Below, piece after piece: positions 1,769 to 61,386 of a stretch of DNA of 64,000 nt. The position numbers and the translations under genes were made by a program. Every line of letters starts with the position of its first letter. The first letter of the stretch is position 1. Below the pieces are notes generated by a model. It was not told the origin of the DNA, ran no database searches, and worked only from the letters and a program-made list of their open reading frames with translations. The DNA comes from a virus: the IMG/VR virus record IMGVR_UViG_3300045988_107529, positions 16,779 to 80,778 of that record; one strand, 5' to 3'.

Positions 1769-2319
1769 CAAGAGAAGAATGGGCGGTACTCGTAAAAGCA
1801 ATGAAAGCTGTGTACACTTCTCCATCATTTCTGCCAGATCAATATGCTTTTGATACTTGGTATGGACTTTTGAAAGACCTAGATTACAAGCTTTTAAGTT
1901 TTGGATTAAAGAAATATATGCAGACTGAATGGAAAGAGCCATCAATAGCCGCATTAAGGCAATGCGCACAAAACATTGCGCCGCAGAAGGAAGAGTTGAA
2001 CGAAACAGAAGCATGGGAAAAGGTATGCAAAGCTATTCAGAACTCTACATATAATGCAGAAGCAGAGTTTGATAAGCTTCCAAAAATCATTCAGAAAGCA
2101 GTATCAAGCCCGGCACAACTTAGAGAATGGGCGGTATCTGAAAATGTGGATGGTACATGGTGGAGTGTGGTTCAATCAAATTTCCAAAGGACATACCGGG
2201 CAGAAGTGCAAAGAGAACAAGAACGAAGAAAACTAAGTCCAGACCTTTTAAAAATTATAGATACTGCCAGATTGGGAGGTGCGGAAAATTGCCAGATAGA
2301 AAACCATGGAGAGAATTAA
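1765..2319 (+). CDS. replicative helicase loader/inhibitor, G39P-like
   Basis: MTREEWAVLVKAMKAVYTSPSFLPDQYAFDTWYGLLKDLDY...PSIAALRQ follows the G39P-type loader pattern. The gene sits directly after the replisome organizer with overlapping stop/start. Confidence 0.55.
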   Translation: MTREEWAVLVKAMKAVYTSPSFLPDQYAFDTWYGLLKDLDYKLLSFGLKKYMQTEWKEPSIAALRQCAQNIAPQKEELNETEAWEKVCKAIQNSTYNAEAEFDKLPKIIQKAVSSPAQLREWAVSENVDGTWWSVVQSNFQRTYRAEVQREQERRKLSPDLLKIIDTARLGGAENCQIENHGEN

Positions 2320-2531
2320 AAAGCACTGAAATTATAGGCTTAAAGCGGAGACAATGCTCAAAATGCGACTATTACAGCAAGAGCGAAAATGCATGGAGTA
2401 CAAATGCAACCTGTGATTATATCTTGATCGAAGAACATAGCAGAGGATGTGATCCGAGGGATTGTGTTAAAACTGGTATCTTCAAGAAAAAATCGAGAGG
2501 AAAATCAAGAGTAAAGCGAGTGATTTTATGA
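2289..2531 (+). CDS. small Cys-rich (zinc-ribbon-like) protein, start uncertain
   Basis: The ORF track gives 2157..2531, which overlaps the loader gene. GGGAGG at 2274-2279 followed by TTG at 2289 gives a non-overlapping start. Motifs CSKCDYY...CDY...C..C are present. Confidence 0.35.
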   Translation: MPDRKPWRELKSTEIIGLKRRQCSKCDYYSKSENAWSTNATCDYILIEEHSRGCDPRDCVKTGIFKKKSRGKSRVKRVIL

Positions 2532-2740: not shown

Positions 2741-2913
2741 AATATGATAATTGTTTTGACCAAAACGGCTAAAATTAATTTTTATGATATTCGTGAATAT
2801 TGTTATGGTTAAAACAAAATAAGCGCTTAAAATCAAAAAAACAGGCTATCAATAGAAAGGAGGAACAGGAACCGCCGGCCGGCAAAAGGAATTCCCGGTT
2901 CCTCCTAAATTTT

Positions 2914-4122: not shown

Positions 4123-4312
4123 GTTCTGATTACCTTTTTGGTTACCTTTGATTACCTCAAGTCTGGAAAGCCTTTAAAATCAAGGGTTTACGGATTAAAA
4201 CGCGAGCCGTGAGGTCGCAGGTTCAAATCCTGTTGCCCCGATTTATGCAGTAAAATCAAGGGTTTGCGGACTTGGTATGAACGAGTGTTCTGATTACCTT
4301 TGATTACCTTTT
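4123..4312. other. attP-like attachment region: arm-type repeats flanking a tRNA 3' fragment
   Basis: There are five copies of (T)GATTACCTT(T), three left (4127-4157) and two tandem right (4291-4312). A 19-nt repeat AAAATCAAGGGTTTRCGGA occurs at 4176-4194 and 4252-4270. Both bracket a tRNA T-arm/acceptor fragment immediately downstream of int. Confidence 0.65.
4213..4241 (+). other. 3' fragment of a tRNA (T-arm plus 3' acceptor strand), resembles tRNA-Pro 3' ends
   Basis: GGTCGCAGG-TTCAAAT-CCTGT-TGCCCCG-A. No matching 5' acceptor, D-arm or 7-nt anticodon loop lies upstream, so it is a partial tRNA copy, typical of an att core. Confidence 0.6.
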
Positions 4313-4433: not shown

Positions 4434-5102
4434 ATGCAGATACACACAGCCTATGATGTAATGAAGGAGTTTCTAATAACTGATGCAGACCTTGAAGGCA
4501 AGTACGGAATCCCGAAAATTCCAAAGACTTTTATTCATCCAGGGAAAGATACTGTAGACTTTTCGGAGAGCTTCAGCAGAAAGATTAAGAACCATCGGGA
4601 ACTTGATGTAAATTTCTATGTGGATGATGTACAGTTTCAAAGATTATGGAATCAGCCAGACAAGTATATGGAGCATTTAAAATGTTTTCATGCAGTCATT
4701 ATGCCAGATTTCAGCATATCGGTTGGCAAGAATGGAATGCCGTTAGCTATGTGCCTGTGGAATAAATACCGCAATCATGCATTGTCTCACTACATGATCT
4801 TGAATGATATTCCAGTAATTCCGAACGTAAACATATTACCAGAATACTGTTGGGACTGGTGCTTTGATGGGCTACCAGAGGGAAGCACAGTTGCCTGTTG
4901 CACCAATGGAAGAGTAAAGAGCAAGGCAGCACGGTTGGAGTTTTGCGTTGGTTTCAAGGAAATGGAACGCAGATTGAAGCCGCTGCGAGTTATCATTGTT
5001 GGAAGAATCCCGGAAGAATTGGAAACAGACACGGAAATTATAAACTTTGAAACCAGGAATCAGAAGATTAACAAGGAGTGCGTGAATGGGAACAACGACT
5101 GA
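4434..5102 (+). CDS. DUF4417-family protein
   Basis: MQIHTAYDV...VNFYVDDVQFQRLWNQPDKY...AVIMPDFSIS...NKYRNHALSHY...IPVIPNV...WCFDGLPEGSTVA matches the DUF4417 pattern as I recall it. TGGAGGG RBS. Confidence 0.7.
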   Translation: MQIHTAYDVMKEFLITDADLEGKYGIPKIPKTFIHPGKDTVDFSESFSRKIKNHRELDVNFYVDDVQFQRLWNQPDKYMEHLKCFHAVIMPDFSISVGKNGMPLAMCLWNKYRNHALSHYMILNDIPVIPNVNILPEYCWDWCFDGLPEGSTVACCTNGRVKSKAARLEFCVGFKEMERRLKPLRVIIVGRIPEELETDTEIINFETRNQKINKECVNGNND

Positions 5103-5220
5103 TAATTACCAGAGAAAGAAGAAACTTTCCAAGTCCCAAATGAAGAGGACGGAACGTTTAGAGAAATCATCCTACAGAAGATATGGAACACGGAAGAAAG
5201 AAGGATTAAACAAATTGTGA
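5086..5220 (+). CDS. possible 44-aa basic peptide (not in ORF track)
   Basis: ATG at 5086 overlaps the end of the DUF4417 gene. Product is MGTTTDNYQRKKKLSKSQMKRTERLEKSSYRRYGTRKKEGLNKL. The only support is an open frame plus coupling geometry. Confidence 0.25.
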   Translation: MGTTTDNYQRKKKLSKSQMKRTERLEKSSYRRYGTRKKEGLNKL

Positions 5221-5278
5221 ATTTTGAATTATTTGGAACTTTACGCTATAGAAATATTTGTGCAAAATTAAAATTTAA

Positions 5279-5323: not shown

Positions 5324-6055
5324 CTGGATTTCCTTGATTTTTTGTTGCCAAAATAATGTTAGAATTTAGGAATCATCCACAAGTTAGTTGCACTATTGAA
5401 GTTTTGAACAACTGCGGTTTTCCATTGCCACAAAATCAACCAGGGGCAGCACCGGGAGCCGATACCGCGCCAAGCTGATGAAGCCGTGACGATTCCGGGA
5501 ATGATTGAATATCAACAAAGACGACAGCCAGCCGTAGACCTGGCAGACCAGAACCAACCGCCCACAGATAATAGGCCATAGCAACAAGTAACATATAACG
5601 TGGCGTTAAAATACAATAATACTCTTGCAAAATAAGCCTTAAATAGCTTGTAACGTATTTAGCCTATACTTTATTGACTACGATTATAAAACGCCTTAAA
5701 ATGGCAAATACAGCGCCATACAACAATAATTGATATATAGCCCGGACAGCTGCGACAGATCACCGGGAAGCCTGGACAAGTCACGCACATAAGCGGACAA
5801 AATGCACCAATTTACACGGTACGCAAATAAAGCATAGCCGCACATAGCTATACAAGGCTATTATATACCTATAGCCGCAGACAGTCAATAAACCATGCAA
5901 GACAATAAAAAGCGTTTTAAAGGCTTATAAGCGGCTTAAAATGTAAATGCTGAAAAATCCCCATTAACAGAATAAAAAACGATTTACGGATAAAATAGCG
6001 CGTTAATTGATTGACTTATTATATTAACTTTGCAAGGTGCATCTGGCAGAATGCC

Positions 6056-6108
6056 AAAAACCGCTTGCACGCCGTGAACGTGCCGCCGGACTGGAAACCG
6101 GGAAGCGG
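6056..6108 (-). terminator. intrinsic terminator of the leftward operon
   Basis: CCGCTT...AAGCGG outer stem with inner hairpins. On the minus strand it is followed by TTTTT, 9 nt downstream of the stop of the 6117..6320 gene. Confidence 0.6.
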
Positions 6109-6116
6109 TGAAAAAA

Positions 6117-6320
6117 TCATTCGTTTATAACAATGTTGAAATCATCATCAATATAACCAATAAATTTTATATTATCCTGGTTATATTCGTTTTTATATGT
6201 TTTATATATGCGTACATGCTTAAAATTTCCATCATACCAAACATCTAAGCCCATAGCATGTATTTTTTCATTTACTTCAAGTTGCTTTCTTACATTTTCC
6301 TTAAAAGTTGAATTTTTCAT
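6117..6320 (-). CDS. hypothetical protein
   Basis: 67-aa ORF, last gene of the leftward operon. No recognisable motif. Confidence 0.45.
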   Translation of the reverse strand: MKNSTFKENVRKQLEVNEKIHAMGLDVWYDGNFKHVRIYKTYKNEYNQDNIKFIGYIDDDFNIVINE

Positions 6321-6377
6321 GCTTTTATCTTTCTTCCCTTCACCCTGGGAGCCAGGATATAAAAAGACGCGCCCTTA

Positions 6378-6755
6378 TTATTTTAAAGTCATTTTTGTAA
6401 CAGCCGGAAGACTGCGGAAAAATTCCCGGCGGTCGTAATCATCATTAATTTTAAATTGTTTGTCACTTGTGGGGATGATCTCGCCGCCGATAAGCTCCAT
6501 ACAGGAGAGTTGCAAACAGTTCTCTTTTTTTGTTGATCTGTGCAGCGCATATCGCATCACAGACTTTTTACCATCCCGACGCTTTACCGGGGACATATCC
6601 CAATAAGCTAATTTAATAACGCCACCAGCAACAGCCTTAAAGATTTCCATTGCTTCCTTTTCAGCTTTTCTGTTGATTGTATCAACTGTTAAGAAATCGC
6701 CGCTTTTTATGGCGGCGATTGTCTGCGCTTGCGTGGCTTTCTTGATTGTTATCAT
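6378..6755 (-). CDS. hypothetical protein
   Basis: Start moved to MITIKKATQ. GGAGGG lies 8 nt upstream, and this start abuts the stop of the upstream gene. Confidence 0.5.
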   Translation of the reverse strand: MITIKKATQAQTIAAIKSGDFLTVDTINRKAEKEAMEIFKAVAGGVIKLAYWDMSPVKRRDGKKSVMRYALHRSTKKENCLQLSCMELIGGEIIPTSDKQFKINDDYDRREFFRSLPAVTKMTLK

Positions 6756-12805: not shown

Positions 12806-13166
12806 TTGGCGTGGAACAAAATGTTTTATTGATGGGAATAAAGTTCCGAATGTACGATCAGTTGATTTCCATGTGGCAGTATATGGAATACCCGTGGTTA
12901 AATTTGAAATGATGGAAGTTCCAGATATTGAAATGGAGTGCCTAGCACAAATTAGTGTCACTTCTCAATCAATTACTGATGCAATTTCAGTTTTAAGGCA
13001 CGAATTACTACAACATGGAGAAATTTACAATGGATTCAAATCAAGCCTAAAATCGGCTTTAGAATCCTACAATTACTGTGGAATGCCATTTGAGCCAGAG
13101 GAAGAGATTGCAGAAAAAATTCTGAACTTCTTAATTGGGGAGGAAAAAGAAAATGAATGCACTTAA
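12768..13166 (+). CDS. hypothetical protein
   Basis: Start moved to MPIVKITNPNPYD, with AAAGGGG upstream. The rest of the track ORF 12636.. overlaps the previous gene. Confidence 0.5.
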   Translation: MPIVKITNPNPYDWRGTKCFIDGNKVPNVRSVDFHVAVYGIPVVKFEMMEVPDIEMECLAQISVTSQSITDAISVLRHELLQHGEIYNGFKSSLKSALESYNYCGMPFEPEEEIAEKILNFLIGEEKENECT

Positions 13167-13329
13167 TGTAATTGGGACAGCTGTAAATCTTGTATTTTTC
13201 GTTCTGGTTCTTGCTGGAACTTTAGCCATACTGGACGAAGAAGGAAAGACAAACGTAATACAGATTTTATTCTGCATTTGTTTAGAAATATGTTTCGCAC
13301 TTAATATTTTTTTAATCTGCACGAGGTGA
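13153..13329 (+). CDS. small membrane protein
   Basis: MNALNVIGTAVNLVFFVLVLAGTLAIL...ILFCICLEICFALNIFLI has two hydrophobic helices. Confidence 0.45.
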   Translation: MNALNVIGTAVNLVFFVLVLAGTLAILDEEGKTNVIQILFCICLEICFALNIFLICTR

Positions 13330-13627
13330 CAAATGTATTTACCGATTCCAATTGGAATTATCCCGATTGAGTTAATCGAAAGGGTTAAATTCATAAAAGC
13401 GCCGCTTCGACTTAATCCATGTAGGTTCGGGAAAGCCTATGAAAGTGATAAGTCGAGGCATCCAGAGTAGCGTAAGCTCTTATTGATGAATACGCCAGGA
13501 ATTATTGAATATTTAGAAAAAGAAAATTTCCCTCCTGGAAAAGAGTAATCAGTAAGAGCGGAAAGTTTATATACTTGTTTAGCTTAATATCACGACTTCC
13601 CCGGTTTTAATGGTGCGCCGGGGTTGA

Positions 13628-13700
13628 TGGGCTATCGCCAAACGGTTAAGGCACAGCACTTTGACTGCTATATTTGCTGGTTCGAATCCAGTTAGCCCAG
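13628..13700 (+). tRNA. tRNA-Gln (anticodon TTG)
   Basis: Hand-folded cloverleaf: TGGGCTA/TAGCCCA acceptor, GCC..GGC D-stem, loop CTTTGAC, GCTGG-TTCGAAT-CCAGT T-arm. Very similar to Bacillus tRNA-Gln as I remember it. No encoded CCA. Confidence 0.85.
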
Positions 13701-13850
13701 TTTGCGGTTTTGCTAACGCCGCAAGTTCATTTTATAACACTCTTTTCTGAAATCTAAAAGCGTTTCAGAAAACCTTTGTTGCGGTTGGTGGTCAAGAACT
13801 GCAACAGTGCCGGATTGTTTGTCATGGCGGTCAAATAATTCGGTATCTTA

Positions 13851-13923
13851 GGAAGCTTAGTTCAGCGGTAAGAGCAACGGCCTCATAAGCCGTAAGTCCT
13901 GGGTTCGAATCCCAGAGCTTCCA
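13851..13923 (+). tRNA. tRNA with CAT anticodon (elongator Met or Ile2/lysidine type)
   Basis: GGAAGCT/AGCTTCC acceptor, GTTC..GAGC D-arm, ACGGC-CTCATAA-GCCGT, CTGGG-TTCGAAT-CCCAG. Confidence 0.85.
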
Positions 13924-14216
13924 TTTCTTCTAAATGCCATTCATCCGTAATATGGGTGGAAAAAACTTCCAGTTGAGCGTGTGGATTAGGTAAATTTATA
14001 GGTGCGATACGGCGTAGCCTAAATGGATCTGATTTCCCGGCTGGTATATCTCGGAGTTAAAAACATTAACGCAGCGCACGTTAATAAAAGGAGTTTTCAA
14101 GAGATGCCGTTCAAAGACGCATAAAAATATCCAGTGAATCTACAGCACTAAAACTTGTAGATAGTGGAAAGCATAACACGATAAACCTATTGCTAACCCG
14201 GAAGAACCGGGTTATT

Positions 14217-14285
14217 CGGAAAGTGCAAGTAACTGGGAACGGGCTAGTCGACTAGGTCTTGATGGTTCGAATCCATCCTTTCCGA
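14217..14285 (+). ncRNA. tRNA-like element: acceptor stem plus T-arm, no foldable D/anticodon arms
   Basis: CGGAAAG...GATGG-TTCGAAT-CCATC-CTTTCCG-A. The interior contains only the palindrome CTAGTCGACTAG. 69 nt. Confidence 0.4.
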
Positions 14286-14444
14286 TTGTTTGGAGACTGA
14301 AAGTTTGGTGGTAGGAAAAGCACAGAGCAGTGCGTAGGAATGTATAACCGAGTTCCGAATACGTACTGTTTATCGGTGATATAGTGACTTCCTCTAGTAG
14401 TCAATAAGTGAACGTGCTGAAATGGTTCTTCCAAACATGTACAT

Positions 14445-14516
14445 AGCAGGATAGAGAAGCGGAATCTCGCATGGCTCATATCCATGAAAACGGCGGTTCG
14501 AATCCGTCTCCTGCTA
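14445..14516 (+). tRNA. second tRNA with CAT anticodon
   Basis: AGCAGGA/TCCTGCT acceptor, GAGA-AGCGGAA-TCTC, CATGG-CTCATAT-CCATG, GGCGG-TTCGAAT-CCGTC. Confidence 0.85.
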
Positions 14517-14575
14517 TTCCATCTACCAAGTGTAGATAGGAAATATGACTTTAGCATAGCTATTGTTGGTTTTTA

Positions 14576-14689
14576 GACGAGGCAGCTCAATTGGACAGAG
14601 CAATGAGAATATTAGTCATGTTTGTGACTATAACAGCAATTTACTCCATTACAAGGCATAGGTTGGTGGTTCGAATCCATCCCTCGTCA
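14576..14689 (+). ncRNA. 114-nt aberrant tRNA-like RNA (canonical acceptor, D- and T-arms; anticodon region replaced)
   Basis: GACGAGG/CCTCGTC acceptor, GCTC-AATTGGACA-GAGC D-arm, GGTGG-TTCGAAT-CCATC T-arm. The centre holds hairpin TAGTCA-TGTTTG-TGACTA plus about 34 extra nt. Confidence 0.45.
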
Positions 14690-14690
14690 C

Positions 14691-14781
14691 TGCCCCGGTT
14701 ATCGGTTACGGAAAACCGATTAGAACATGTTTGTGTTCTTCACTGCAAATAATTTTATAGGTTCAAATCCTGTCGGGGCAA
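14691..14781 (+). ncRNA. 91-nt aberrant tRNA-like RNA, tandem to the previous one
   Basis: TGCCCCG/CGGGGCA acceptor, ATCG(GTT)-loop-(AAC)CGAT arm, hairpin AGAACA-TGTTTG-TGTTCT, 17-nt linker, ATAGG-TTCAAAT-CCTGT T-arm. It starts 2 nt after the previous element ends. Confidence 0.45.
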
Positions 14782-14934
14782 TTATGTGATGCTTACAGCA
14801 ATCATTTTGGACATAACTGCTAAATTATGAAACCCAAAAGCATCATGAAATTTATGGGACGCTTACAGCAACTCACTTAAATAAAATCTAATTCGTATAT
14901 TTTATATTTTTTGTGTCCTGAAAGGAGAAGAAAC

Positions 14935-16386
14935 ATGGATTTTGCAAATGCAATGAAGGAAGAAAGCAAGTTTACAAGAACTGAAAACGGAGCAGTTGCG
15001 CTGAATACTACAAGTGATGCAAGACTTGACCTGTTCGGAACTATTGGTGCATTGAGAGAAGCTGATGAAAATAGAATCACCACTTTATTCTCAGAAGCAT
15101 TTGCACAGGATAAACTTTTTGCCACAAAGATTGCTTTTTATGCAAGAGATATTCGTTGTGGGCTTGGAGAGAGAAAAACTTTCCGAACCATTATCCGCTA
15201 CATGGCTGAACATCATCCAGAAGCACTCAGACCGAATCTTGATTTAATTGGAGTATTCGGGAGATACGATGATCTGTATGAACTGATTGAAACACCACTT
15301 GAAGATGACATGTGGAAATCTATGAAGAAACAATTTGAGGAAGATTTGAAAAATCTCAATGATGGAAAAGCAATTTCTTTACTTGCTAAATGGATTAAGA
15401 CTGCTGATGCAAGTAGCAGAGAAACTAGGAAGTTAGGAATCTTGACTGCACAGAAGTTGGGTTATCCAGTCTACAACTTTAAGAGAATTGTTCGTAGCAT
15501 GAGAAAACAGATCGGTGTTGTTGAAAGCCTTATGTCTGCCGGTAAATGGAATGAGATTAAATATCCAGAAGTTCCGAGCCGTGCAATGATGATTTATCGC
15601 AAGGCCTTTGCAAAACATGATCCAGATGGATTTAATGATTTTATTAATAAGGCTGATAAAGGAGAAGTTAAAATCAACGCTTCAACTTTGTATCCTTATG
15701 ACATCGTGGAAAAAATCCTTTACGGAAGAGAAAACAACAAAGTTCTTGAAGCACAGTGGAAAGCACTTCCAGATTATGTTGAACAGGGAACAAACGCACT
15801 CATAATGGCGGACGTATCTGGCTCAATGTATGGAAGACCAATGGCAACATCAATTGGACTAGCTATATATTTTGCCGAGAGAAACACAGGCGCATATCAT
15901 AATCTTTTTATGACTTTCTCGGCAAATCCACAGATTGTTACTTTGAAAGGAGAAACACTTTTTCAAAAGGTGAGAAATGTTAATAAGGCAGACTGGGGAA
16001 TGAATACAAACCTCAAAGCAGCATTCGAGAAAGTTCTTGATATTGCTGAAAAGAACAATATTTCACAAGAACAAATGCCAAAAGCTATCGTTGTAATTTC
16101 CGATATGGAAATTGATCGTTGCGGAAATAAGGACTGGTCTTTTTATGACAAAATGGAAAGTAAGTTTCGCAAAGCCGGATATGTTATTCCAAACATTATT
16201 TTCTGGAATGTCGAAAGCAGACATGATGTATTCCACGCGGACTCTACAAGGAAAGGCGTACAGCTTGCAAGTGGTCAGTCGGTGACAGTGTTCAAACAGG
16301 TGTTACAGAATCTTGGATACAATCCAATTGAAGCTATGGAGAACACGATCAATTCGGAAAGATACAATTGTATTACTGTCGAATGA
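14935..16386 (+). CDS. DUF2828-family protein with C-terminal vWA domain (MIDAS DxSxS)
   Basis: MDFANAMKEESKFTRTENGAVALNTTSDARLDLF... matches the DUF2828 N-terminus from memory. ALIMADVSGSMYGRPMATSIGLAIYFAE is a vWA MIDAS motif. AAAGGAGAAG RBS. Confidence 0.75.
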   Translation: MDFANAMKEESKFTRTENGAVALNTTSDARLDLFGTIGALREADENRITTLFSEAFAQDKLFATKIAFYARDIRCGLGERKTFRTIIRYMAEHHPEALRPNLDLIGVFGRYDDLYELIETPLEDDMWKSMKKQFEEDLKNLNDGKAISLLAKWIKTADASSRETRKLGILTAQKLGYPVYNFKRIVRSMRKQIGVVESLMSAGKWNEIKYPEVPSRAMMIYRKAFAKHDPDGFNDFINKADKGEVKINASTLYPYDIVEKILYGRENNKVLEAQWKALPDYVEQGTNALIMADVSGSMYGRPMATSIGLAIYFAERNTGAYHNLFMTFSANPQIVTLKGETLFQKVRNVNKADWGMNTNLKAAFEKVLDIAEKNNISQEQMPKAIVVISDMEIDRCGNKDWSFYDKMESKFRKAGYVIPNIIFWNVESRHDVFHADSTRKGVQLASGQSVTVFKQVLQNLGYNPIEAMENTINSERYNCITVE

Positions 16387-16446
16387 AACAAAAGTGAAAA
16401 CCATCTCAGTTCCTTTGAAAAGAACTGTCCGTGACAGGCGGCAATA

Positions 16447-16518
16447 TGAAACATAGCTCAGTGGTAGAGCAATGATACTCAATATCATGTGACACAGGTT
16501 CGATTCCTGTTGTTTCTA
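16447..16518 (+). tRNA. tRNA with TCA anticodon (UGA-reading: suppressor / Trp-UCA-like), unusual C33 and T1:T72 mismatch
   Basis: TGAAACA..TGTTTCT acceptor (first pair mismatched), GCTC-AGTGGTA-GAGC, ATGAT-ACTCAAT-ATCAT, ACAGG-TTCGATT-CCTGT. Confidence 0.65.
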
Positions 16519-16564
16519 TCTGGCAAATTGCCATTGCCAGAAGTTGCATTTTCCCCCTTAAAGT

Positions 16565-16619
16565 TCCAGTGTTTCTCGTTGGGAGATTCATGCCGTTCAA
16601 GTCGGCACACTGGATTTTT
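16565..16619 (+). ncRNA. anticodon-arm-less mini tRNA-like hairpin ending in a T-run (also works as terminator of the tRNA unit)
   Basis: TCCAGTG-TT-TCTC-GTTGG-GAGA-TTCA-TGCCG-TTCAAGT-CGGCA-CACTGGA-TTTTT. Confidence 0.4.
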
Positions 16620-16636
16620 CTAAATCGAGGTAATTT

Positions 16637-16786
16637 ATGAAAGAAAAATGTTGCAAGAATTGCAGAAGACATGATGACTTCACATGGGTTTGTTTCAATG
16701 GTGATAGCGAATATTGCGCAGACTTTACGGAGCCAGAGTGTTATTGTGAGTTTTGGGAGAGAAAAGAAGATGGAGATATGTGGTAA
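16637..16786 (+). CDS. 49-aa Cys-rich protein (not in ORF track)
   Basis: GAGGT RBS then ATG at 16637. Product is MKEKCCKNCRRHDDFTWVCFNGDSEYCADFTEPECYCEFWERKEDGDMW. Confidence 0.5.
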   Translation: MKEKCCKNCRRHDDFTWVCFNGDSEYCADFTEPECYCEFWERKEDGDMW

Positions 16787-16937
16787 AGAAATAAAAGACG
16801 AATGTTCAAACTGCGGAAATATCCTTGAATGCGAATTGTTCCGTCAAGGGCATGGAATAAAACAGGAACGTGAAAACATAGCTAAAATGATTGCCTGTCA
16901 GATGAAGCACAGGGAGAGAAGGGAATTTGAATGCTAA
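16770..16937 (+). CDS. small Cys-rich protein
   Basis: MEICGKEIKDECSNCGNILECELF... The internal start of track ORF 16671..16937 avoids overlap with the previous gene. Confidence 0.45.
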   Translation: MEICGKEIKDECSNCGNILECELFRQGHGIKQERENIAKMIACQMKHRERREFEC

Positions 16938-17206
16938 ATTTACTTGATAAACGCAATTGCCCTGTTTGCGGTGGAATATTGAAATGTGAAAATGCCGATT
17001 TCACAAACCCTTTTATAGAAAAAGGACTCTTTTTAAATGTGACATGGCAATGCACCAATTGCGGCGCTGAATATACTGCAAAACTTGAATTAACCCCAAA
17101 CGGATATGAGTTGCAAGACCGTGAAGCACATATTGATGTAGAGGATAATTTTTCAGCCGAAAAATTTATGCTTGGAAGAGACAATTTTCGAAGACAGAGG
17201 TGGTAA
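16931..17206 (+). CDS. zinc-ribbon protein
   Basis: CPVCGG...CTNCGA form two CxxC pairs. Confidence 0.5.
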   Translation: MLNLLDKRNCPVCGGILKCENADFTNPFIEKGLFLNVTWQCTNCGAEYTAKLELTPNGYELQDREAHIDVEDNFSAEKFMLGRDNFRRQRW

Positions 17207-17208
17207 AT

Positions 17209-17532
17209 ATGAAATTTGAGGATATGGCAAACTGGACAGAGGAACAGCTAAAAAAAGAGGTTGTGAGACTATCTGAAGAATGTGAGAAGAAGCAGCATAT
17301 AATCCTGGACTATGAAGCTTTATCGGAGACAATTAACCAAAAGCTTCTTGAAAATGATAACTGGAAGATTCCGATTGATGGAATTGAAAATGTAGATACT
17401 GGTCATCCATCTATAGAATGGTATGAACAACGCCACCAGGATGACTGTATTAGAATCAACGAGTTAACTGTTACTGTTGACACTCTGGTTGACCGATATG
17501 CTAATTTAAGGAAAAATAAAGGAATGTGCTGA
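17209..17532 (+). CDS. hypothetical protein
   Basis: MKFEDMANWTEEQLKKE..., with AGAGGTGG RBS. Confidence 0.5.
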   Translation: MKFEDMANWTEEQLKKEVVRLSEECEKKQHIILDYEALSETINQKLLENDNWKIPIDGIENVDTGHPSIEWYEQRHQDDCIRINELTVTVDTLVDRYANLRKNKGMC

Positions 17533-19176: not shown

Positions 19177-19338
19177 ATGGTATGGTGCGAATTAAGAAAC
19201 ATTCCGTGCATACATCCAGAACCAGATGGATTAGAAAATTGCAGATATTGTGAAAAATATAGTTTTGAAAAATATTTAGAATACAAAAAATCAAAAAGAA
19301 AAGTCAAGAGAGCCAAAAAGGAGCGCCATTATGAGTGA
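19177..19338 (+). CDS. 53-aa Cys-containing basic-tailed protein (not in ORF track)
   Basis: MVWCELRNIPCIHPEPDGLENCRYCEKYSFEKYLEYKKSKRKVKRAKKERHYE. Its 3' end overlaps the rtcB start and contains the left copy of the 14-bp repeat. Confidence 0.45.
   Translation: MVWCELRNIPCIHPEPDGLENCRYCEKYSFEKYLEYKKSKRKVKRAKKERHYE
19302..19315 (+). repeat. left copy of 14-bp direct repeat AGTCAAGAGAGCCA flanking rtcB
   Basis: An identical 14-mer occurs at 20536-20549. Confidence 0.8.
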
Positions 19339-20533
19339 TTTGAAGATATTTACAGAAAAAATCGAGCAAGAAGCATTAAATCAAATTTATACACTAATAA
19401 AACAGCCTGCATTTTCTGAATGTAAAGTACGAATCATGCCAGATGTTCACGCAGGGGCAGGATGTGTAATTGGCTTTACAGCTGATCTTGGAGATAAAGT
19501 AATTCCGAACATTGTTGGAGTAGACATTGGATGCGGAATGCTCACAACACAAATTCCTACTGATGTGGGAACAATAGATTTTAAAATCCTTGACGAAGTG
19601 ATAAGAAATAATGTTCCGGCAGGAAGAAATGTACGTGACGAAATCATAAATTTTAAAGAATTAGAAGAACTTCACTGCTTTTCACTGCTTAAAAATGTTG
19701 AATGGATTCGCAGGAGTCTTGGTACACTTGGGGGAGGAAATCATTTTATTGAAGTTGACACCGATTCAAAAGGCATAAACTACCTTGTAATTCACACTGG
19801 AAGTCGTAACCTTGGAAAACAGGTAGCTGAAATATATCAAAAAATTGCCATAGAAGATATGCAGGGTACAGATAAGCTCGAAACTGAAATACAGAAATTA
19901 GTAAAAGAATACAAGTGCTCTGGCAGGCATAAGGAAATTCAAAATAGTATTGATGAATTAAAACGAAAATGGAAGCCAGACAAACTTGGAATTCCGAAAG
20001 AACTATGTTATTTGACAGGTGAGCATAGAAGACAATATCTGCATGATATGAAAATCTGTCAAGAATTTGCAAGAATAAACAGAAGATGCATACAGTCAGC
20101 TATATTCTACACTATGAATTGGACACTTCAAAGAAACACATGGTTTGACACAATTCATAATTATATTGACCACGATACAAATATTGTTCGGAAAGGTGCG
20201 ATATCAGCTAAACATGGTGAAAAAGTTCTTATCCCTATGAATATGCGAGATGGATGTATTATTGCAATTGGAAAAGGAAATGAGGATTGGAACTGTTCAG
20301 CCCCGCATGGCGCAGGGCGTATTATGAGCCGATCAAAAGCAAAAGAAAACATTTCGTTAGAAGAATTTAAGGAGTCTATGAATGGGATATATACAACATC
20401 CGTTCAGAAATCTACAATTGACGAAAGCCCTATGGCTTACAAACCGCCGCAAGAAATTATTGATAAAATCAAAGATACCGTAGATATAGTTGATATTATT
20501 AAACCTGTATATAATTTCAAAGCAAGTGAATAA
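19331..20533 (+). CDS. rtcB: RtcB RNA 3'-phosphate ligase
   Basis: MPDVHAGAGCVIGF, GGGNHFIE, HTGSRNLG and CSAPHGAGR are the RtcB metal-binding and His-GMP motifs. 400 aa. Confidence 0.9.
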   Translation: MSDLKIFTEKIEQEALNQIYTLIKQPAFSECKVRIMPDVHAGAGCVIGFTADLGDKVIPNIVGVDIGCGMLTTQIPTDVGTIDFKILDEVIRNNVPAGRNVRDEIINFKELEELHCFSLLKNVEWIRRSLGTLGGGNHFIEVDTDSKGINYLVIHTGSRNLGKQVAEIYQKIAIEDMQGTDKLETEIQKLVKEYKCSGRHKEIQNSIDELKRKWKPDKLGIPKELCYLTGEHRRQYLHDMKICQEFARINRRCIQSAIFYTMNWTLQRNTWFDTIHNYIDHDTNIVRKGAISAKHGEKVLIPMNMRDGCIIAIGKGNEDWNCSAPHGAGRIMSRSKAKENISLEEFKESMNGIYTTSVQKSTIDESPMAYKPPQEIIDKIKDTVDIVDIIKPVYNFKASE

Positions 20534-20600: not shown

Positions 20601-22352
20601 ATGTCAAAAATTACAGAAGGTTCGCTCGAATGGTATCGGGCAGTGCTGAATCAAATTATCAGTAGTGATATGACAATCTATCAGAACCAAAAAGATTGCC
20701 TTGATTTGCTCTTGAACATGAATATTGACCTTCCTTTCGACAAGAACCAAGAAGCACGGAAAATGGCCATGAAAGTAAGCCAATACTCACATAACATAGC
20801 AGAGAAGTGTGCTGCATTAACTGGCAGTGGCGATTTTGATGATATCTACTGGCAGTATTTGTTACTGGAAGCACCACATTTGCTGGATTCCTATGCCATG
20901 TATATAGAAAAAGATAGAAAACCAGAAGAACGGTTCTATTTGCCAAGACGCAGAACATTGAAAAAAGTAGTAGATAAATTACAAGCACTTGAAGAAGATG
21001 AACTTGACGAATTGTTTCTGCATCAGCCAGCCAGAACTGGTAAATCACAAATTATTACTGTCGGAACCGCATGGCATTGTGCAAGAAATTCAGAGATAAG
21101 CAACCTCTATGTTACATATAAAGAAGGACTTGGCGGTGCATTCCTAGATGGAGTTACGGAAATATGGACTGACCCAACATATTGCCATGAAGATGTATTT
21201 CATTCAAAAATAGCCAGAACAGATGCAAAGAACCACAAAGTAGACCTTGAAAGAAAGAAAAAATATGCGACATTATCTGGAAAAGGTTTGGAATCTGGTT
21301 TGAACGGTGAGTATGACGCATATGGTTGGCTGATTCTCGATGATATCCTGGAAGGTATTCAAGATGTATTAAATCCAGATATTCTCAGAAGAAAGCAAAT
21401 TGTGTTTGACAACAATGTAATGTCACGAAAGAAAGAACAATGTAAATTGATTCTAAATGGTACTATCTGGTCATTGCATGATTTGTATATGGACAGACTA
21501 TCATTTCTTCAGAATAATCCAGAAGCAAAACACATTAGATATGATGTTCTTAAAATTCCAGCTCTTGACCCGGAAACTGATGAGAGTAATTTTGACTACG
21601 ATTACGGAGTTGGATTCAGTACAAAATATTATCGCACTATTCGTTCTAAATTTGAAGAAAACGATGATATGGCAGGATGGTTAGCCCAGTATCAGCAGGA
21701 ACCTATTGAAAGAGATGGTGCTTTATTTAATGCGCAACATATGAACTTTTATAATGGACAATTGCCAGATGAAGAACCATTGAAAGTAGTTTCAGCTTGC
21801 GATGTGGCTCTTGGCGGTAGTGATTATCTTGCAATGCCAGTAGCATATGTATATGAAGATGGTTCCGTATATATACACGAAGTAGTATTTGATAATTCTG
21901 AAAAGAAATTTACTATGCCAAAAGTCGTATCAGCAATTGTCAATAATAAAGTTACGAATGCTTTTTTTGAAGCCAATGCAGGCGGCGAAGGGTATAAAGA
22001 TGAAGTAGAAGGAAAGTTAAAGGAGCAAGGGTATCAAACTAATCTTACTTCTAAATATGCGCAACAAATGATTTTGAATAATGGTGGACACGCACCTAAA
22101 TCGGCAGTGAGAAAAGAACAGAGAATTTGGGATAATGCTGAAAACATTAGAAAATTTTATTTTCTTGATACTGGATATCAAAACGCAGAGTATAGAAAAT
22201 TTATGAATAATGTCTATTCATTCACAATGACAGGAAAAAATAAGCACGATGACGCACCGGATTCACTCGCTAGTTTAGCAGTATTCTTAAAAAATGGAAG
22301 CGGAGTTGGAACCGCAACAGCAACACAGAATCCACTTTGGGGAAGGAGATAG
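20601..22352 (+). CDS. terL: terminase large subunit
   Basis: Walker A-like QPARTGKSQ, Walker B-like WLILDDILEG, C-terminal nuclease-type HDDAPDSLA. 583 aa, directly upstream of the portal region. Confidence 0.85.
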   Translation: MSKITEGSLEWYRAVLNQIISSDMTIYQNQKDCLDLLLNMNIDLPFDKNQEARKMAMKVSQYSHNIAEKCAALTGSGDFDDIYWQYLLLEAPHLLDSYAMYIEKDRKPEERFYLPRRRTLKKVVDKLQALEEDELDELFLHQPARTGKSQIITVGTAWHCARNSEISNLYVTYKEGLGGAFLDGVTEIWTDPTYCHEDVFHSKIARTDAKNHKVDLERKKKYATLSGKGLESGLNGEYDAYGWLILDDILEGIQDVLNPDILRRKQIVFDNNVMSRKKEQCKLILNGTIWSLHDLYMDRLSFLQNNPEAKHIRYDVLKIPALDPETDESNFDYDYGVGFSTKYYRTIRSKFEENDDMAGWLAQYQQEPIERDGALFNAQHMNFYNGQLPDEEPLKVVSACDVALGGSDYLAMPVAYVYEDGSVYIHEVVFDNSEKKFTMPKVVSAIVNNKVTNAFFEANAGGEGYKDEVEGKLKEQGYQTNLTSKYAQQMILNNGGHAPKSAVRKEQRIWDNAENIRKFYFLDTGYQNAEYRKFMNNVYSFTMTGKNKHDDAPDSLASLAVFLKNGSGVGTATATQNPLWGRR

Positions 22353-42762: not shown

Positions 42763-43023
42763 TTTTTGACTGATTGTGTGGTATGATTTCTTTAATGAAG
42801 AAGTACACACGGTTTTGATTTTTGAGCCGCTAAGAAGAAATTAATATTTCTCGATTTTGAGGAATTTTTATCTTACTTGGCGGCTCTTTTTTATTTTAAC
42901 CGTTAATTTTGGTAAAACCAACAGGCTAGACCGATCATCGAAAAGCGGAAATGCCTTGCCGCCTGCCTGTTGATTTACATACAGTTCAAGGCACTCTTTT
43001 ATACGAAAGGCAGGTATCAATCT

Positions 43024-60999: not shown

Positions 61000-61007
61000 C
61001 AAAAAAA

Positions 61008-61036
61008 CTGACAGGAGTGCTGTCCTATCAGTTTTT
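61008..61036 (+). terminator. intrinsic terminator
   Basis: CTGACAGGA-gtgc-TGTCCTATCAG (one mismatch) followed by TTTTT. Confidence 0.55.
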
Positions 61037-61386
61037 GCCTAAATTTGTTTACCTTATGTGTTTTGCAGACGGAACGCACTTGTTCAGTCACATAAGCAGC
61101 ACCAAATGTTTCTTGAAACACTTCGCCACTTACGCAGTTTTAGTTCTGCGATTGAGTAAAAAAAGATTAGCTGCCCATTAGTTGGCGAATGTAGGAATTT
61201 TACCTATAAAAGTAAAATTGCTTAACGGTCTTTGGTAACGCAGGTTACTCTGCTTGCGACCTACAATAAGGAACAGGGCAAATTCAAAAGTTGGGTCAAA
61301 GCAAACAACTCCTTTCATTGCCCATTATTTGGGTATGAAATAATTTTAACACATAGGAAAAATATTTTCAATGCAAGAAAGGTAAG

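Follow-up and report, generated by a model that had tools for sequence, protein, structure and literature searches.

What might a phage encode in a pair of elements that have the acceptor stem and T arm of a tRNA and, where the anticodon arm should be, a hairpin of another kind? The question is raised by E1 and E2, two such elements in tandem on the plus strand of a 64,000-nucleotide stretch of viral DNA (IMG/VR record IMGVR_UViG_3300045988_107529, positions 16,779 to 80,778), which we refer to as the window and which is part of a human-gut phage genome of ~80 kb. Both lie 154-359 nt upstream of, and on the same strand as, a gene for a 483-aa protein of the DUF2828 family. We propose that E1 and E2 are non-coding, tRNA-like and Y-RNA-like partner RNAs of this Ro60-like protein, which is predicted to bind them, and we would put the probability of this reading at roughly 0.7; it is most likely that neither is a decoding tRNA. 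The proposal rests on the structures of the elements, their conservation and covariation, the predicted Ro60 fold of the protein, and a genomic association that holds whether one starts from the gene or from the RNA.

Coordinates of all features are collected in Table 1. The original prediction, made from the letters of the window, had described two elements of 114 and 91 nt with a single spacer nucleotide between them (C14690), each with a 7-bp acceptor stem, a discriminator A and a T arm, the first with a D arm as well, and both with a 6-bp hairpin closed on the loop TGTTTG and followed by a further segment of 34 or 17 nt; all of this is present in the sequence as described. It passed over an outer stem at the anticodon-stem position of E1, the 7-mer AC(A/U)GCAA that begins 2 nt past the hairpin of each element, and two additional elements, E3 and E4. 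Among features typical of tRNA, the pair has the acceptor stem, the T arm and a D arm with elbow nucleotides, the last replaced in E2 by a hairpin with GG in its loop. Minimum free energy folds recover the acceptor stem and the shared hairpin in both elements, and in E2 the D-like hairpin and T arm too, with z-scores against dinucleotide shuffles of -2.8 for E1 and -3.8 for E2. The hairpin loops of both read UG-UU-UG. ARAGORN called four ordinary tRNAs in the region and neither E1 nor E2, and the Rfam tRNA family RF00005 (gathering threshold 29 bits), with which the four true tRNAs of the region score 58-72 bits, has no match over E1/E2 even at E<=10. No Rfam family covers E1-E3 at the gathering thresholds or at E<=10, and RF02553 (YrlA) has no match at E<=10 across positions 13000-17500. 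One further observation concerns E2 and a tRNA 3' fragment, possibly attP, at 4205-4241, on which the original prediction had also remarked correctly: the acceptor 3' strand of the fragment, TGCCCCG, is the acceptor 5' strand of E2, and the 15-mer AGGTTCAAATCCTGT at 4219-4233, which is followed by TGCCCCGA, is identical to one in the E2 T arm.

The 7-mer belongs to a larger module. It reads ACAGCAA in E1, E3 and E4 and ACUGCAA in E2, and is set off from the preceding helix by 2 nt in every case. E3 and E4 are simple stem-loops in which GCUUACAGCAA directly follows the 5' strand of the closing stem and a UG tail follows the 3' strand; they are kept in all close relatives, with variable interiors, and the E4 closing stem GGACGC/GUGUCC becomes GGACAC/GUGUCC in relatives. 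The module consists of a helix, denoted S (strands S5' and S3'), with a G lead and a U-G tail, and of two nucleotides followed by single-stranded ACAGCAA on its 3' side, usually with an A-rich opposite strand. In 227 unique open forms (median length 64 nt), a G stands before S5' in 64%, two U-rich nucleotides and ACAGCAA come after it, the 8 nt before S3' are A-rich (37-64% A per position, A always being the commonest), and S3' is followed by U in 81% and then by G in 88%.

This motif is also found in non-coding DNA beside the homologous gene of very distant phages, with three exact copies and one ACAGCUA variant in Bacillus phage Skywalker, three motif copies in Listeria phage AG20/CKA15, two exact copies and one GCAGCAA variant in mycobacteriophage UPIE, and three exact copies and one UCAGCAA variant in the FelixO1-like E. 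coli phage wV8. The 162 loci compared total 1.09 Mb, in which the gene strand has 592 exact copies of ACAGCAA and the other strand 86, against 66 expected, and the copies are concentrated in the 1 kb before the gene; at 103 full-length loci, 161 copies fall within 250 nt before it, compared with a background of 1-8 copies per bin. The loci were collapsed to 54 protein clusters (<70% identity between clusters), which take in phages of Bacillus, Listeria, Mycobacterium and E. coli as well as Treponema and Asgard metagenome-assembled genomes (MAGs). The motif lies on the gene strand within 1.5 kb in 49 of the 54 clusters, with a supporting stem in 47, and 77.9 kb of their upstream sequence contains 103 copies where 4.8 are expected (opposite strand, 10). 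As the DUF2828 gene and the module occur together on two Promethearchaeota (Asgard) MAG contigs, L223 and L224, the latter with a permuted tRNA-like form, the pair is not confined to bacterial phages. A first criterion for the open stem, at least 6 bp anywhere within 240 nt, gave no discrimination from controls; with the 2-nt gap fixed, 48% of motifs reach a stem of at least 6 bp, versus 14-17% in controls.

The association holds in the reverse direction as well. A scan of IMG/VR by the RNA pattern alone (CATGTTTGTG-N5-7-ACAGCAA) returned 116 loci, and the gene is present on the same strand at 97 of them, a median of 819 nt downstream; since 14 loci were too short, this amounts to 97 of 102 informative cases. 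The five loci without the gene comprise three chance matches in coding DNA and two true elements. Since most of the 116 belong to the clade of the window itself, they carry less independent weight than the 54 clusters.

Homologs of E1 were found at 76 related loci and homologs of E2 at 55, with 72-99% identity. RNAalifold on 41 E1 orthologs yields the acceptor, the D stem, a 7-bp S hairpin and the T stem, with compensatory change in six pairs. For E2, the acceptor appears in relatives as TGCCCCG/CGGGGCA, TGCCCCA/TGGGGCA or GTCCCCG/CGGGGAC, and the hairpin that substitutes for the D arm as ATCGGTT/AACCGAT, GTCGGTT/AACCGAC, CCGGTT/AACCGG or TTGTCTC/GAGACAA; paired changes are also seen in its S hairpin and T stem, although these E2 changes were read by eye and not formally counted, and the register of the E2 relatives is off by 1 nt in the MAFFT alignment. 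GG is retained in the loop of the D substitute, as contact with the T loop at the elbow would require. Homologs thus show compensatory changes in acceptor, T, D-like and hairpin stems, and the elements are not tRNA genes adrift, a possibility that the original prediction had raised. In both E1 and E2, conservation is lowest at the middle of the shared hairpin loop and highest in the loop-flanking CAUG...GUG and the 7-mer 2 nt downstream.

An alignment of 69 diverse E1-type relatives (A3) extends this picture. In A3, 98.6% of cells are paired, 21 of 22 pairs change on both sides, all six pairs of the S hairpin covary, and the covariation score is 0.84, compared with 0.21 for shuffles and 0.10-0.15 for slid controls. 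Three controls are independent of the selection of A3: the D stem, which lies outside the selection criteria and is 95.7% paired with four of four pairs covarying, the strand asymmetry of the closed forms described below (314 vs 2), and a covariance-model search. The covariance model built from A3 (R1), of the kind called for by the original prediction, scores E1 at 97.4 bits. A search of 100 distant loci with it gave 81 matches of at least 60 bits, of which 17 lie outside the training set and none is on the strand opposite to the gene; true tRNAs score ~40 bits or less. Invariant or nearly invariant in A3 are the elbow set (U8, A14, G18, G19, G53, T54, T55, C56, A58, C61) and the module, whose motif does not vary at C59, G61, C62 and A64 and hardly varies at A60 and A63. 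Joint conservation of elbow and module is the pattern that would be expected of an L-shaped tRNA mimic with a replaced anticodon end.

The module occurs in three layouts: minimal stem-loops such as E3 and E4, permuted tRNA-like forms with the layout of YrlA, and closed forms in tRNA order such as E1 and E2. A T loop lies within 50 of the 227 open forms, and those of them read by eye, the permuted forms of Table 1, run S5' - motif - T arm - capped acceptor-like helix - D arm - S3'. The order in E1/E2 is acceptor 5' - D arm - (A-rich linker) - S3' - loop - S5' - NN - ACAGCAA - variable segment - T arm - acceptor 3'. A structural detector for the closed layout found 316 elements, of which 314 share the strand of the gene and two are on the opposite one; they reduce to 166 unique sequences, which form 82 clusters. 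In these, S is closed by a U.G pair and G starts 134 of the 166 loops; the loop otherwise varies (UGUUUG, UGUCUG, UGUUCG, UGCCUG and others), with only the flanking U-G...G kept, and measures ~6-18 nt with the closing U.G pair counted, or 4-16 nt for the loop proper. Because closed loops join the same U-G tail and G lead by 2-3 nt, the U-G and G would belong to the recognised structure and not be mere end-processing signals, and because the closed hairpin loop reproduces the tail and lead of the open form, the layouts amount to circular permutations of one design. A single phage (L163) shows the permutation directly, with open forms AGACAC/GUGUCU and a closed form GUGUCU-UAAC-AGACGC. At another locus (L082, 1195-1719) and its relatives (L105-L150), up to four or five closed carriers stand in tandem 1-5 nt apart, with differing acceptor stems and D arms of class I or class II type. 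If closed units were duplicated in tandem, the permuted YrlA-type arrangement would arise automatically; as a corollary, tandem tRNA-order arrays such as E1-E2 could show how a permuted YrlA-type mimic arose, through duplication followed by shifted ends.

The protein encoded downstream passes the Pfam thresholds for DUF2828, DUF7788 and VWA_2, has no match to Pfam TROVE at E<=0.01, and is assigned to PHROG 850, 'RNA-binding protein'; its mycobacteriophage homologs are annotated 'Ro-like RNA binding protein', and the family comprises 6,714 clusters at 50% identity. A homolog search repeated with a profile of 5 sequences found no relatives beyond the close ones of the first. Searches of PDB by sequence, with the single sequence or a 65-sequence profile, found vWA domains only, so the relation to Ro60 is visible only by comparison of folds. 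An AlphaFold2 model from a 61-sequence alignment (predicted local distance difference test score 94.9, predicted template-modeling score 0.93) has the architecture of a HEAT-repeat ring and a C-terminal vWA domain with an intact metal-ion-dependent adhesion site (MIDAS), whose residues D293, S295, S297, T358 and D390 are invariant. The top 11 Foldseek matches of this model in PDB are all Ro60/Rsr structures aligned over full length (~520-560 columns, E 1e-6 to 1e-4, template-modeling score 0.44-0.61) and comprise Xenopus and human Ro60, Deinococcus Rsr and the Ro60 of Thermus phage phiLo; the next matches are isolated vWA domains. The Listeria homolog, CKA15_055, has been reported in purified virions, and HHpred points to Rsr for it as well (PMC12282133).

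A protein of this fold with tRNA-like RNAs at its gene has precedents. Y RNAs encoded on the same strand as bacterial and phage Ro60 genes, no more than 4 kb away, mimic tRNA and serve as substrates of RNase P (PMC4201824), the Ro60 of phage phiLo binds two Y-like RNAs encoded upstream (PMC12135203), and it has been proposed that a phage ROT/TROVE protein and its tRNA-like partner form a platform for RNA repair next to RtcB (PMC7824862). In the window, a gene for RtcB RNA ligase lies ~3 kb beyond the DUF2828 gene, an RNA-repair context as in rsr-yrlBA-rtcBA. From these observations we infer transcription, processing, direct binding and a role in repair for the RNAs of the window, as follows. 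The array would be co-transcribed with the tRNAs and the DUF2828 mRNA, and RNase P and RNase Z would cut at the tRNA-like acceptor ends and so free E1 and E2. The S-helix/ACAGCAA module, which sits where the anticodon loop would be, would then dock on the Ro60-like ring, and the tRNA-like body might gate the ring or tether it to tRNA-handling factors. During infection, such a complex may act with the phage tRNAs and RtcB in the quality control or repair of tRNA and RNA.

The original prediction had offered four readings of E1 and E2, and it is the Y-RNA-like scaffold that fares well, given elements on the same strand upstream of a protein with the Ro60 fold and a module that tracks the DUF2828 family across distant phages; its other three, namely splicing by RtcB of intron-containing tRNAs, decoys for anticodon nucleases, and quadruplet decoding, gain no such support. 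The main rival, which we nevertheless hold to be improbable, is the first of these, in which E1 and E2 are tRNA precursors whose anticodon loop carries an intron-like insert; a nuclease would remove the insert and the phage RtcB would reseal the RNA, to give functional and perhaps nuclease-resistant tRNAs. The RtcB gene 3 kb downstream is as this scheme would have it, as are bodies of tRNA quality (acceptor, D and T arms, elbow nucleotides), which resemble class I and class II tRNAs and lie in tRNA arrays with spacers of 1-5 nt, and the short outer stem of E1 at the anticodon-stem position. However, ARAGORN with its intron option (-i) assigns E1 orthologs the anticodons tta, ttc, ctt and tcc at differing intron positions, which means that no anticodon is conserved; E2-type elements have neither D arm nor outer stem; a bulge-helix-bulge was not seen by eye, no formal scan having been made; and it is the insert, and not the putative remnants of the loop, that is most conserved. 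Moreover, the identical module is found in the 227 open forms, which mostly have no tRNA body and some of which are permuted with a loop-capped acceptor, and excision from permuted tRNA-like RNAs would leave nothing useful.

The case for each of the remaining explanations is weaker still. A role of the RNAs as decoys or sponges that draw off host anticodon nucleases, or other defences directed at tRNA, with no part played by the DUF2828 protein, would suit their tRNA-like shape and their position in a phage tRNA/RtcB region of the sort typical of counter-defence (PMC7824862), but the anticodon loop, the target of such nucleases, is absent from them, and the conserved module tracks the DUF2828 gene in the 49 clusters mentioned above and occurs without a tRNA body; we therefore consider decoys unlikely. 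We are similarly disinclined to believe that the hairpin and ACAGCAA units are mainly cis-acting, as processing sites or as 5' untranslated region operators that autoregulate the DUF2828 mRNA, with the tRNA-like bodies as decaying tRNA genes. E4 ends 3 nt before the AGGAG ribosome binding site (RBS) of the gene (14923-14927), and the last element adjoins the RBS at many loci, so that a secondary, autoregulatory role of the E4 copy is possible; neither promoter nor terminator was found to separate array and gene. Against a mainly cis-acting function stand the several copies per locus, the elements that lie downstream of the gene, between tRNAs, in UPIE and FelixO1-like wV8, and the signs of purifying selection on the tRNA bodies, with their compensatory changes and intact elbow nucleotides. 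Last, decoding of quadruplets or some other unusual decoding by tRNAs with an 8-nt anticodon loop strikes us as very improbable indeed. It started from the observation of the original prediction that opening the closing pair gives an 8-nt loop with U at the U33 position; the comparative data contradict it, as the centre of the loop is its least conserved part and varies freely, the loop proper runs from 4 to 16 nt, the E1 hairpin lies within a larger loop closed by another stem, and the Rfam tRNA model does not match.

Several observations must be set against our preferred reading of E1 and E2 as partner RNAs of the Ro60-like protein. E2 scores 35 bits with R1, no better than true tRNAs, even though its module is aligned, and its motif is ACUGCAA in place of ACAGCAA. 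The near-100% pairing in A3 is partly circular, because pairing of acceptor, S and T was among the criteria by which A3 was selected. The two true closed forms of the reverse scan (L249 and L317) lack a DUF2828 gene as far as their available flanks extend, and RtcB lies within 3 kb at only 21 of the 162 loci. In CKA15, the one related phage for which there are transcriptomics, the abundant non-coding RNAs (ncRNAs) are not at the ACAGCAA elements. Furthermore, ACAGCAA is a putative protein contact, and might instead be a site of RNA-RNA pairing or a processing signal.

Among known systems, the closest is YrlA (RF02553; Chen et al. 2014, PMC4201824), likewise a small RNA on the same strand as, and a few kb from, the gene of a Ro60-type protein, often with RtcB, and likewise composed of a protein-binding stem module and a tRNA-like domain (T arm, D arm, acceptor-type helix, elbow nucleotides). 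YrlA has a simpler sister RNA, YrlB, comparable to E3/E4, and the permuted relatives in UPIE, wV8, Skywalker and the Asgard contig L224 are laid out exactly as YrlA is; RF02553 matches the one in UPIE at 39.8 bits (E 1.6e-7), short of its gathering score of 69. Unlike YrlA, however, E1 and E2 are in tRNA order, with an acceptor formed by the open ends, a capped binding helix and no circular permutation; the sequence beside the stem is ACAGCAA or ACUGCAA and not GNCGAA(N0-1)G, the RF02553 consensus being without ACAGCAA; and the partner is a DUF2828/DUF7788 protein and not a Pfam TROVE protein, with kinship to Ro60 at the level of the fold only. The Ro60/Rsr-Y RNA ribonucleoproteins of animals, Deinococcus and phiLo (PDB 1YVP, 2NVO, 9L5Y; PMC12135203) share with the present system the HEAT-repeat ring and vWA domain with intact MIDAS, partner RNAs upstream of the gene, and in these RNAs a conserved motif, single-stranded or bulged, after a terminal stem. 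They differ in that the motif is of CGAA type, that sequence identity with the DUF2828 protein is 11-17%, and that binding, PNPase tethering and other functions are known for them and would be putative for the DUF2828 branch. With canonical tRNA (RF00005), E1 and E2 and their relatives have in common the 7-bp acceptor and discriminator, U8/A14/G18G19, a 5-bp T stem with a loop of the TΨCRA type, a variable arm in many members, and a location in tRNA arrays with spacers of 1-5 nt, but they have neither the 5-bp stem with 7-nt anticodon loop nor a conserved anticodon, and E2 has no D arm. The kind of system is as such already known, and what differs is the DUF2828 branch, the ACAGCAA signature and the unpermuted tRNA topology of E1/E2. 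Rfam 15 holds no family covering RNAs of the E1/E2 type, and in the literature searched we found no description of them and no partner RNA reported for the DUF2828 branch; a search for the motif string returned primers only, and searches on DUF2828, UCP015417, and Dictyostelium with TROVE found nothing relevant.

The surroundings of the array deserve a brief description. Proteins of the window are encoded at 85-100% identity on dozens of IMG/VR contigs, and the closest cellular matches (70-77% identity) are in Lachnospiraceae MAGs. The interval 13394-14934 has no long open reading frame (ORF) on the plus strand and contains, ahead of E1/E2, a tRNA-Gln, two tRNA-Met and a sub-threshold tRNA-like element; at least one tRNA is present at 96 of 163 loci. 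The sub-threshold element has a good acceptor and T arm, an aberrant D/anticodon region and the sequence AGUGCAA, and might be a decayed tRNA or a third carrier of a variant motif. Some 800 nt of further non-coding DNA is interleaved with the tRNAs (13394-13627, 13701-13850, 13924-14216, 14286-14443), in which neither an Rfam match nor a long ORF is found; it may contain other structured RNAs. A scan for promoters and terminators around the array found nothing above shuffles. The tRNA with anticodon UCA that directly follows the DUF2828 gene is suppressor-like; TGA terminates 25 of 83 long plus-strand ORFs, and clear genome-wide recoding was not seen. Elsewhere in the window there are two phage-associated Rfam motifs of unknown function, a FuFi-1 RNA (61002-61189, minus strand, 136.9 bits) and an int-alpA RNA (42919-42991, plus strand, 45.4 bits).

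A few observations on other loci may be recorded here. Downstream of the closed form of L249 (~5050-5230, minus strand) is a terminase gene, and downstream of that of L317 (~6010-6160, plus strand) are SPOR and metallo-beta-lactamase genes. The three very abundant ncRNAs of Listeria phage CKA15 were considered as ACAGCAA elements and rejected, as they map 1.2-1.5 kb upstream of the homologous gene. They come from a non-coding stretch of ~600 nt after a TTGACA/TATAGT promoter (1811-2470 of L245, the CKA15 locus, equal to ~2410-3070 of L084), annotated with the tiny ORFs CKA15_059-061, a region from which the most abundant phage transcripts have been reported (PMC12282133). Having neither a Rfam match nor the ACAGCAA module, this stretch looks like a separate unknown phage RNA.

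Table 1. Features of the array and its neighbourhood in the window, with permuted relatives at other loci (positions there refer to the locus).
Feature	Position	Strand	Remarks
E1, closed tRNA-like RNA in tRNA order, with module	14576-14689	+	114 nt; from sequence; 97.4 bits with R1
E1 acceptor GACGAGG/CCTCGTC	14576-14582/14682-14688		discriminator A14689
E1 D arm GCTC-AATTGGACA-GAGC	14585-14601		from sequence
E1 outer 'anticodon' stem ATG-AG / CT-C-CAT	14603-14607/14644-14649		short, irregular
E1 S hairpin TAGTCA-UGUUUG-UGACUA	14613-14630	+	module helix, capped by a loop keeping the open-form U-G tail and G lead
E1 motif ACAGCAA	14633-14639	+	starts 2 nt past S hairpin
E1 T arm GGTGG-TTCGAAT-CCATC	14665-14681		one G.U pair
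E2, second closed tRNA-like RNA	14691-14781	+	91 nt
E2 acceptor TGCCCCG/CGGGGCA	14691-14697/14774-14780		discriminator A14781
E2 hairpin ATCGGTT-ACGGAA-AACCGAT	14701-14720		7 bp; replaces D arm; GG in loop
E2 S hairpin AGAACA-TGTTTG-TGTTCT	14722-14739		
E2 motif ACUGCAA	14742-14748		2 nt past S hairpin
E2 T arm ATAGG-TTCAAAT-CCTGT	14757-14773		
E3, minimal open form	14787-14847	+	S5' UGAUGCUU, ACAGCAA 14795-14801, variable loop, A-rich tract, S3' AAGCAUCA, UG tail
E4, minimal open form	14857-14920	+	S5' GGACGC, UU, ACAGCAA 14865-14871, S3' GUGUCC, UG tail
DUF2828 + DUF7788/vWA protein gene	14935-16386	+	483 aa; Ro60/Rsr fold; proposed protein partner
tRNA-Gln	13628-13700	+	upstream array
tRNA-Met	13851-13923	+	upstream array
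Weak tRNA-like element	14217-14285	+	27.1 bits with Rfam tRNA (threshold 29)
tRNA-Met	14444-14517	+	upstream array
tRNA, anticodon UCA	16447-16518	+	ARAGORN label tRNA-SeC; directly 3' of DUF2828 gene
RtcB RNA ligase gene	19331-20533	+	Pfam RtcB E 1.2e-62; PHROG tRNA splicing ligase
Terminase gene	20601-22352		
Permuted form, Skywalker (L083)	2238-2366		
Permuted form, wV8 (L086)	~6343-6497		
Permuted form, UPIE (L085)	5518-5650		
Permuted form, Asgard contig (L224)	~2745-2895		

A more distant parallel is offered by the abundant Class I RNAs of Dictyostelium (RF01414; Kjellin et al. 2021, PMC7919456), whose function is still unknown. Like the minimal forms, these RNAs have a terminal stem of ~6 bp that joins their ends and, directly after its 5' strand, (C)UUACAGCAA, an 11-mer whose conserved C6, C9, A10 and A11 are the positions that are invariant or nearly so here; the Rfam consensus has an A-rich tract before the 3' strand, and their length of 42-65 nt compares with a median of 64 nt for the open forms. 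The 3' tail is C-U-G-U in Dictyostelium and U-G here. They differ further in being eukaryotic, in having no tRNA body such as that of E1/E2, and in that their only known direct binder is an RRM (RNA recognition motif) protein, Rnp1A. RF01414 matches only E4 (22.8 bits, E 0.66 in 4.5 kb, gathering score 41.5) and none of E1-E3, and it has no match in four other phage loci at E<=1. From the terminal stem, CCUUACAGCAA, the A-rich 3' side, the CUGU tail and the length of ~60 nt, one may speculate, as a tentative and on balance doubtful idea, that the module (S helix, UU, ACAGCAA, A-rich side and U-G) is the universal ligand of the DUF2828 branch of Ro60 proteins from bacterial and archaeal phages to eukaryotes, and that the Class I RNAs are the Y RNAs of a eukaryotic DUF2828 protein.

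The comparison of loci places E1 and E2, in tRNA order, within a widespread family of RNAs linked to the Ro60-like proteins of the DUF2828 branch. Such 'Ro-like RNA-binding proteins' are found in many well-studied phages, such as the Felix O1-like phages, the Listeria P100/A511-like phages and mycobacteriophages including UPIE, as well as in phages of Staphylococcus, Enterococcus, Campylobacter and Vibrio and in abundant human-gut phages, and the sequence-defined module offers a concrete and directly testable candidate for the RNA ligand of this family. With E1 and E2 in tRNA order, tRNA mimicry by Y-like RNAs would exist in both circular permutations. The family would also explain unannotated 'tRNA-OTHER' or pseudo-tRNA-like features of phage tRNA arrays, and it represents a class of false or missed calls that tRNA-gene annotators may come to recognise. 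If the Dictyostelium parallel were true, it would in addition provide a lead on an RNA class that has been an orphan for 20 years.

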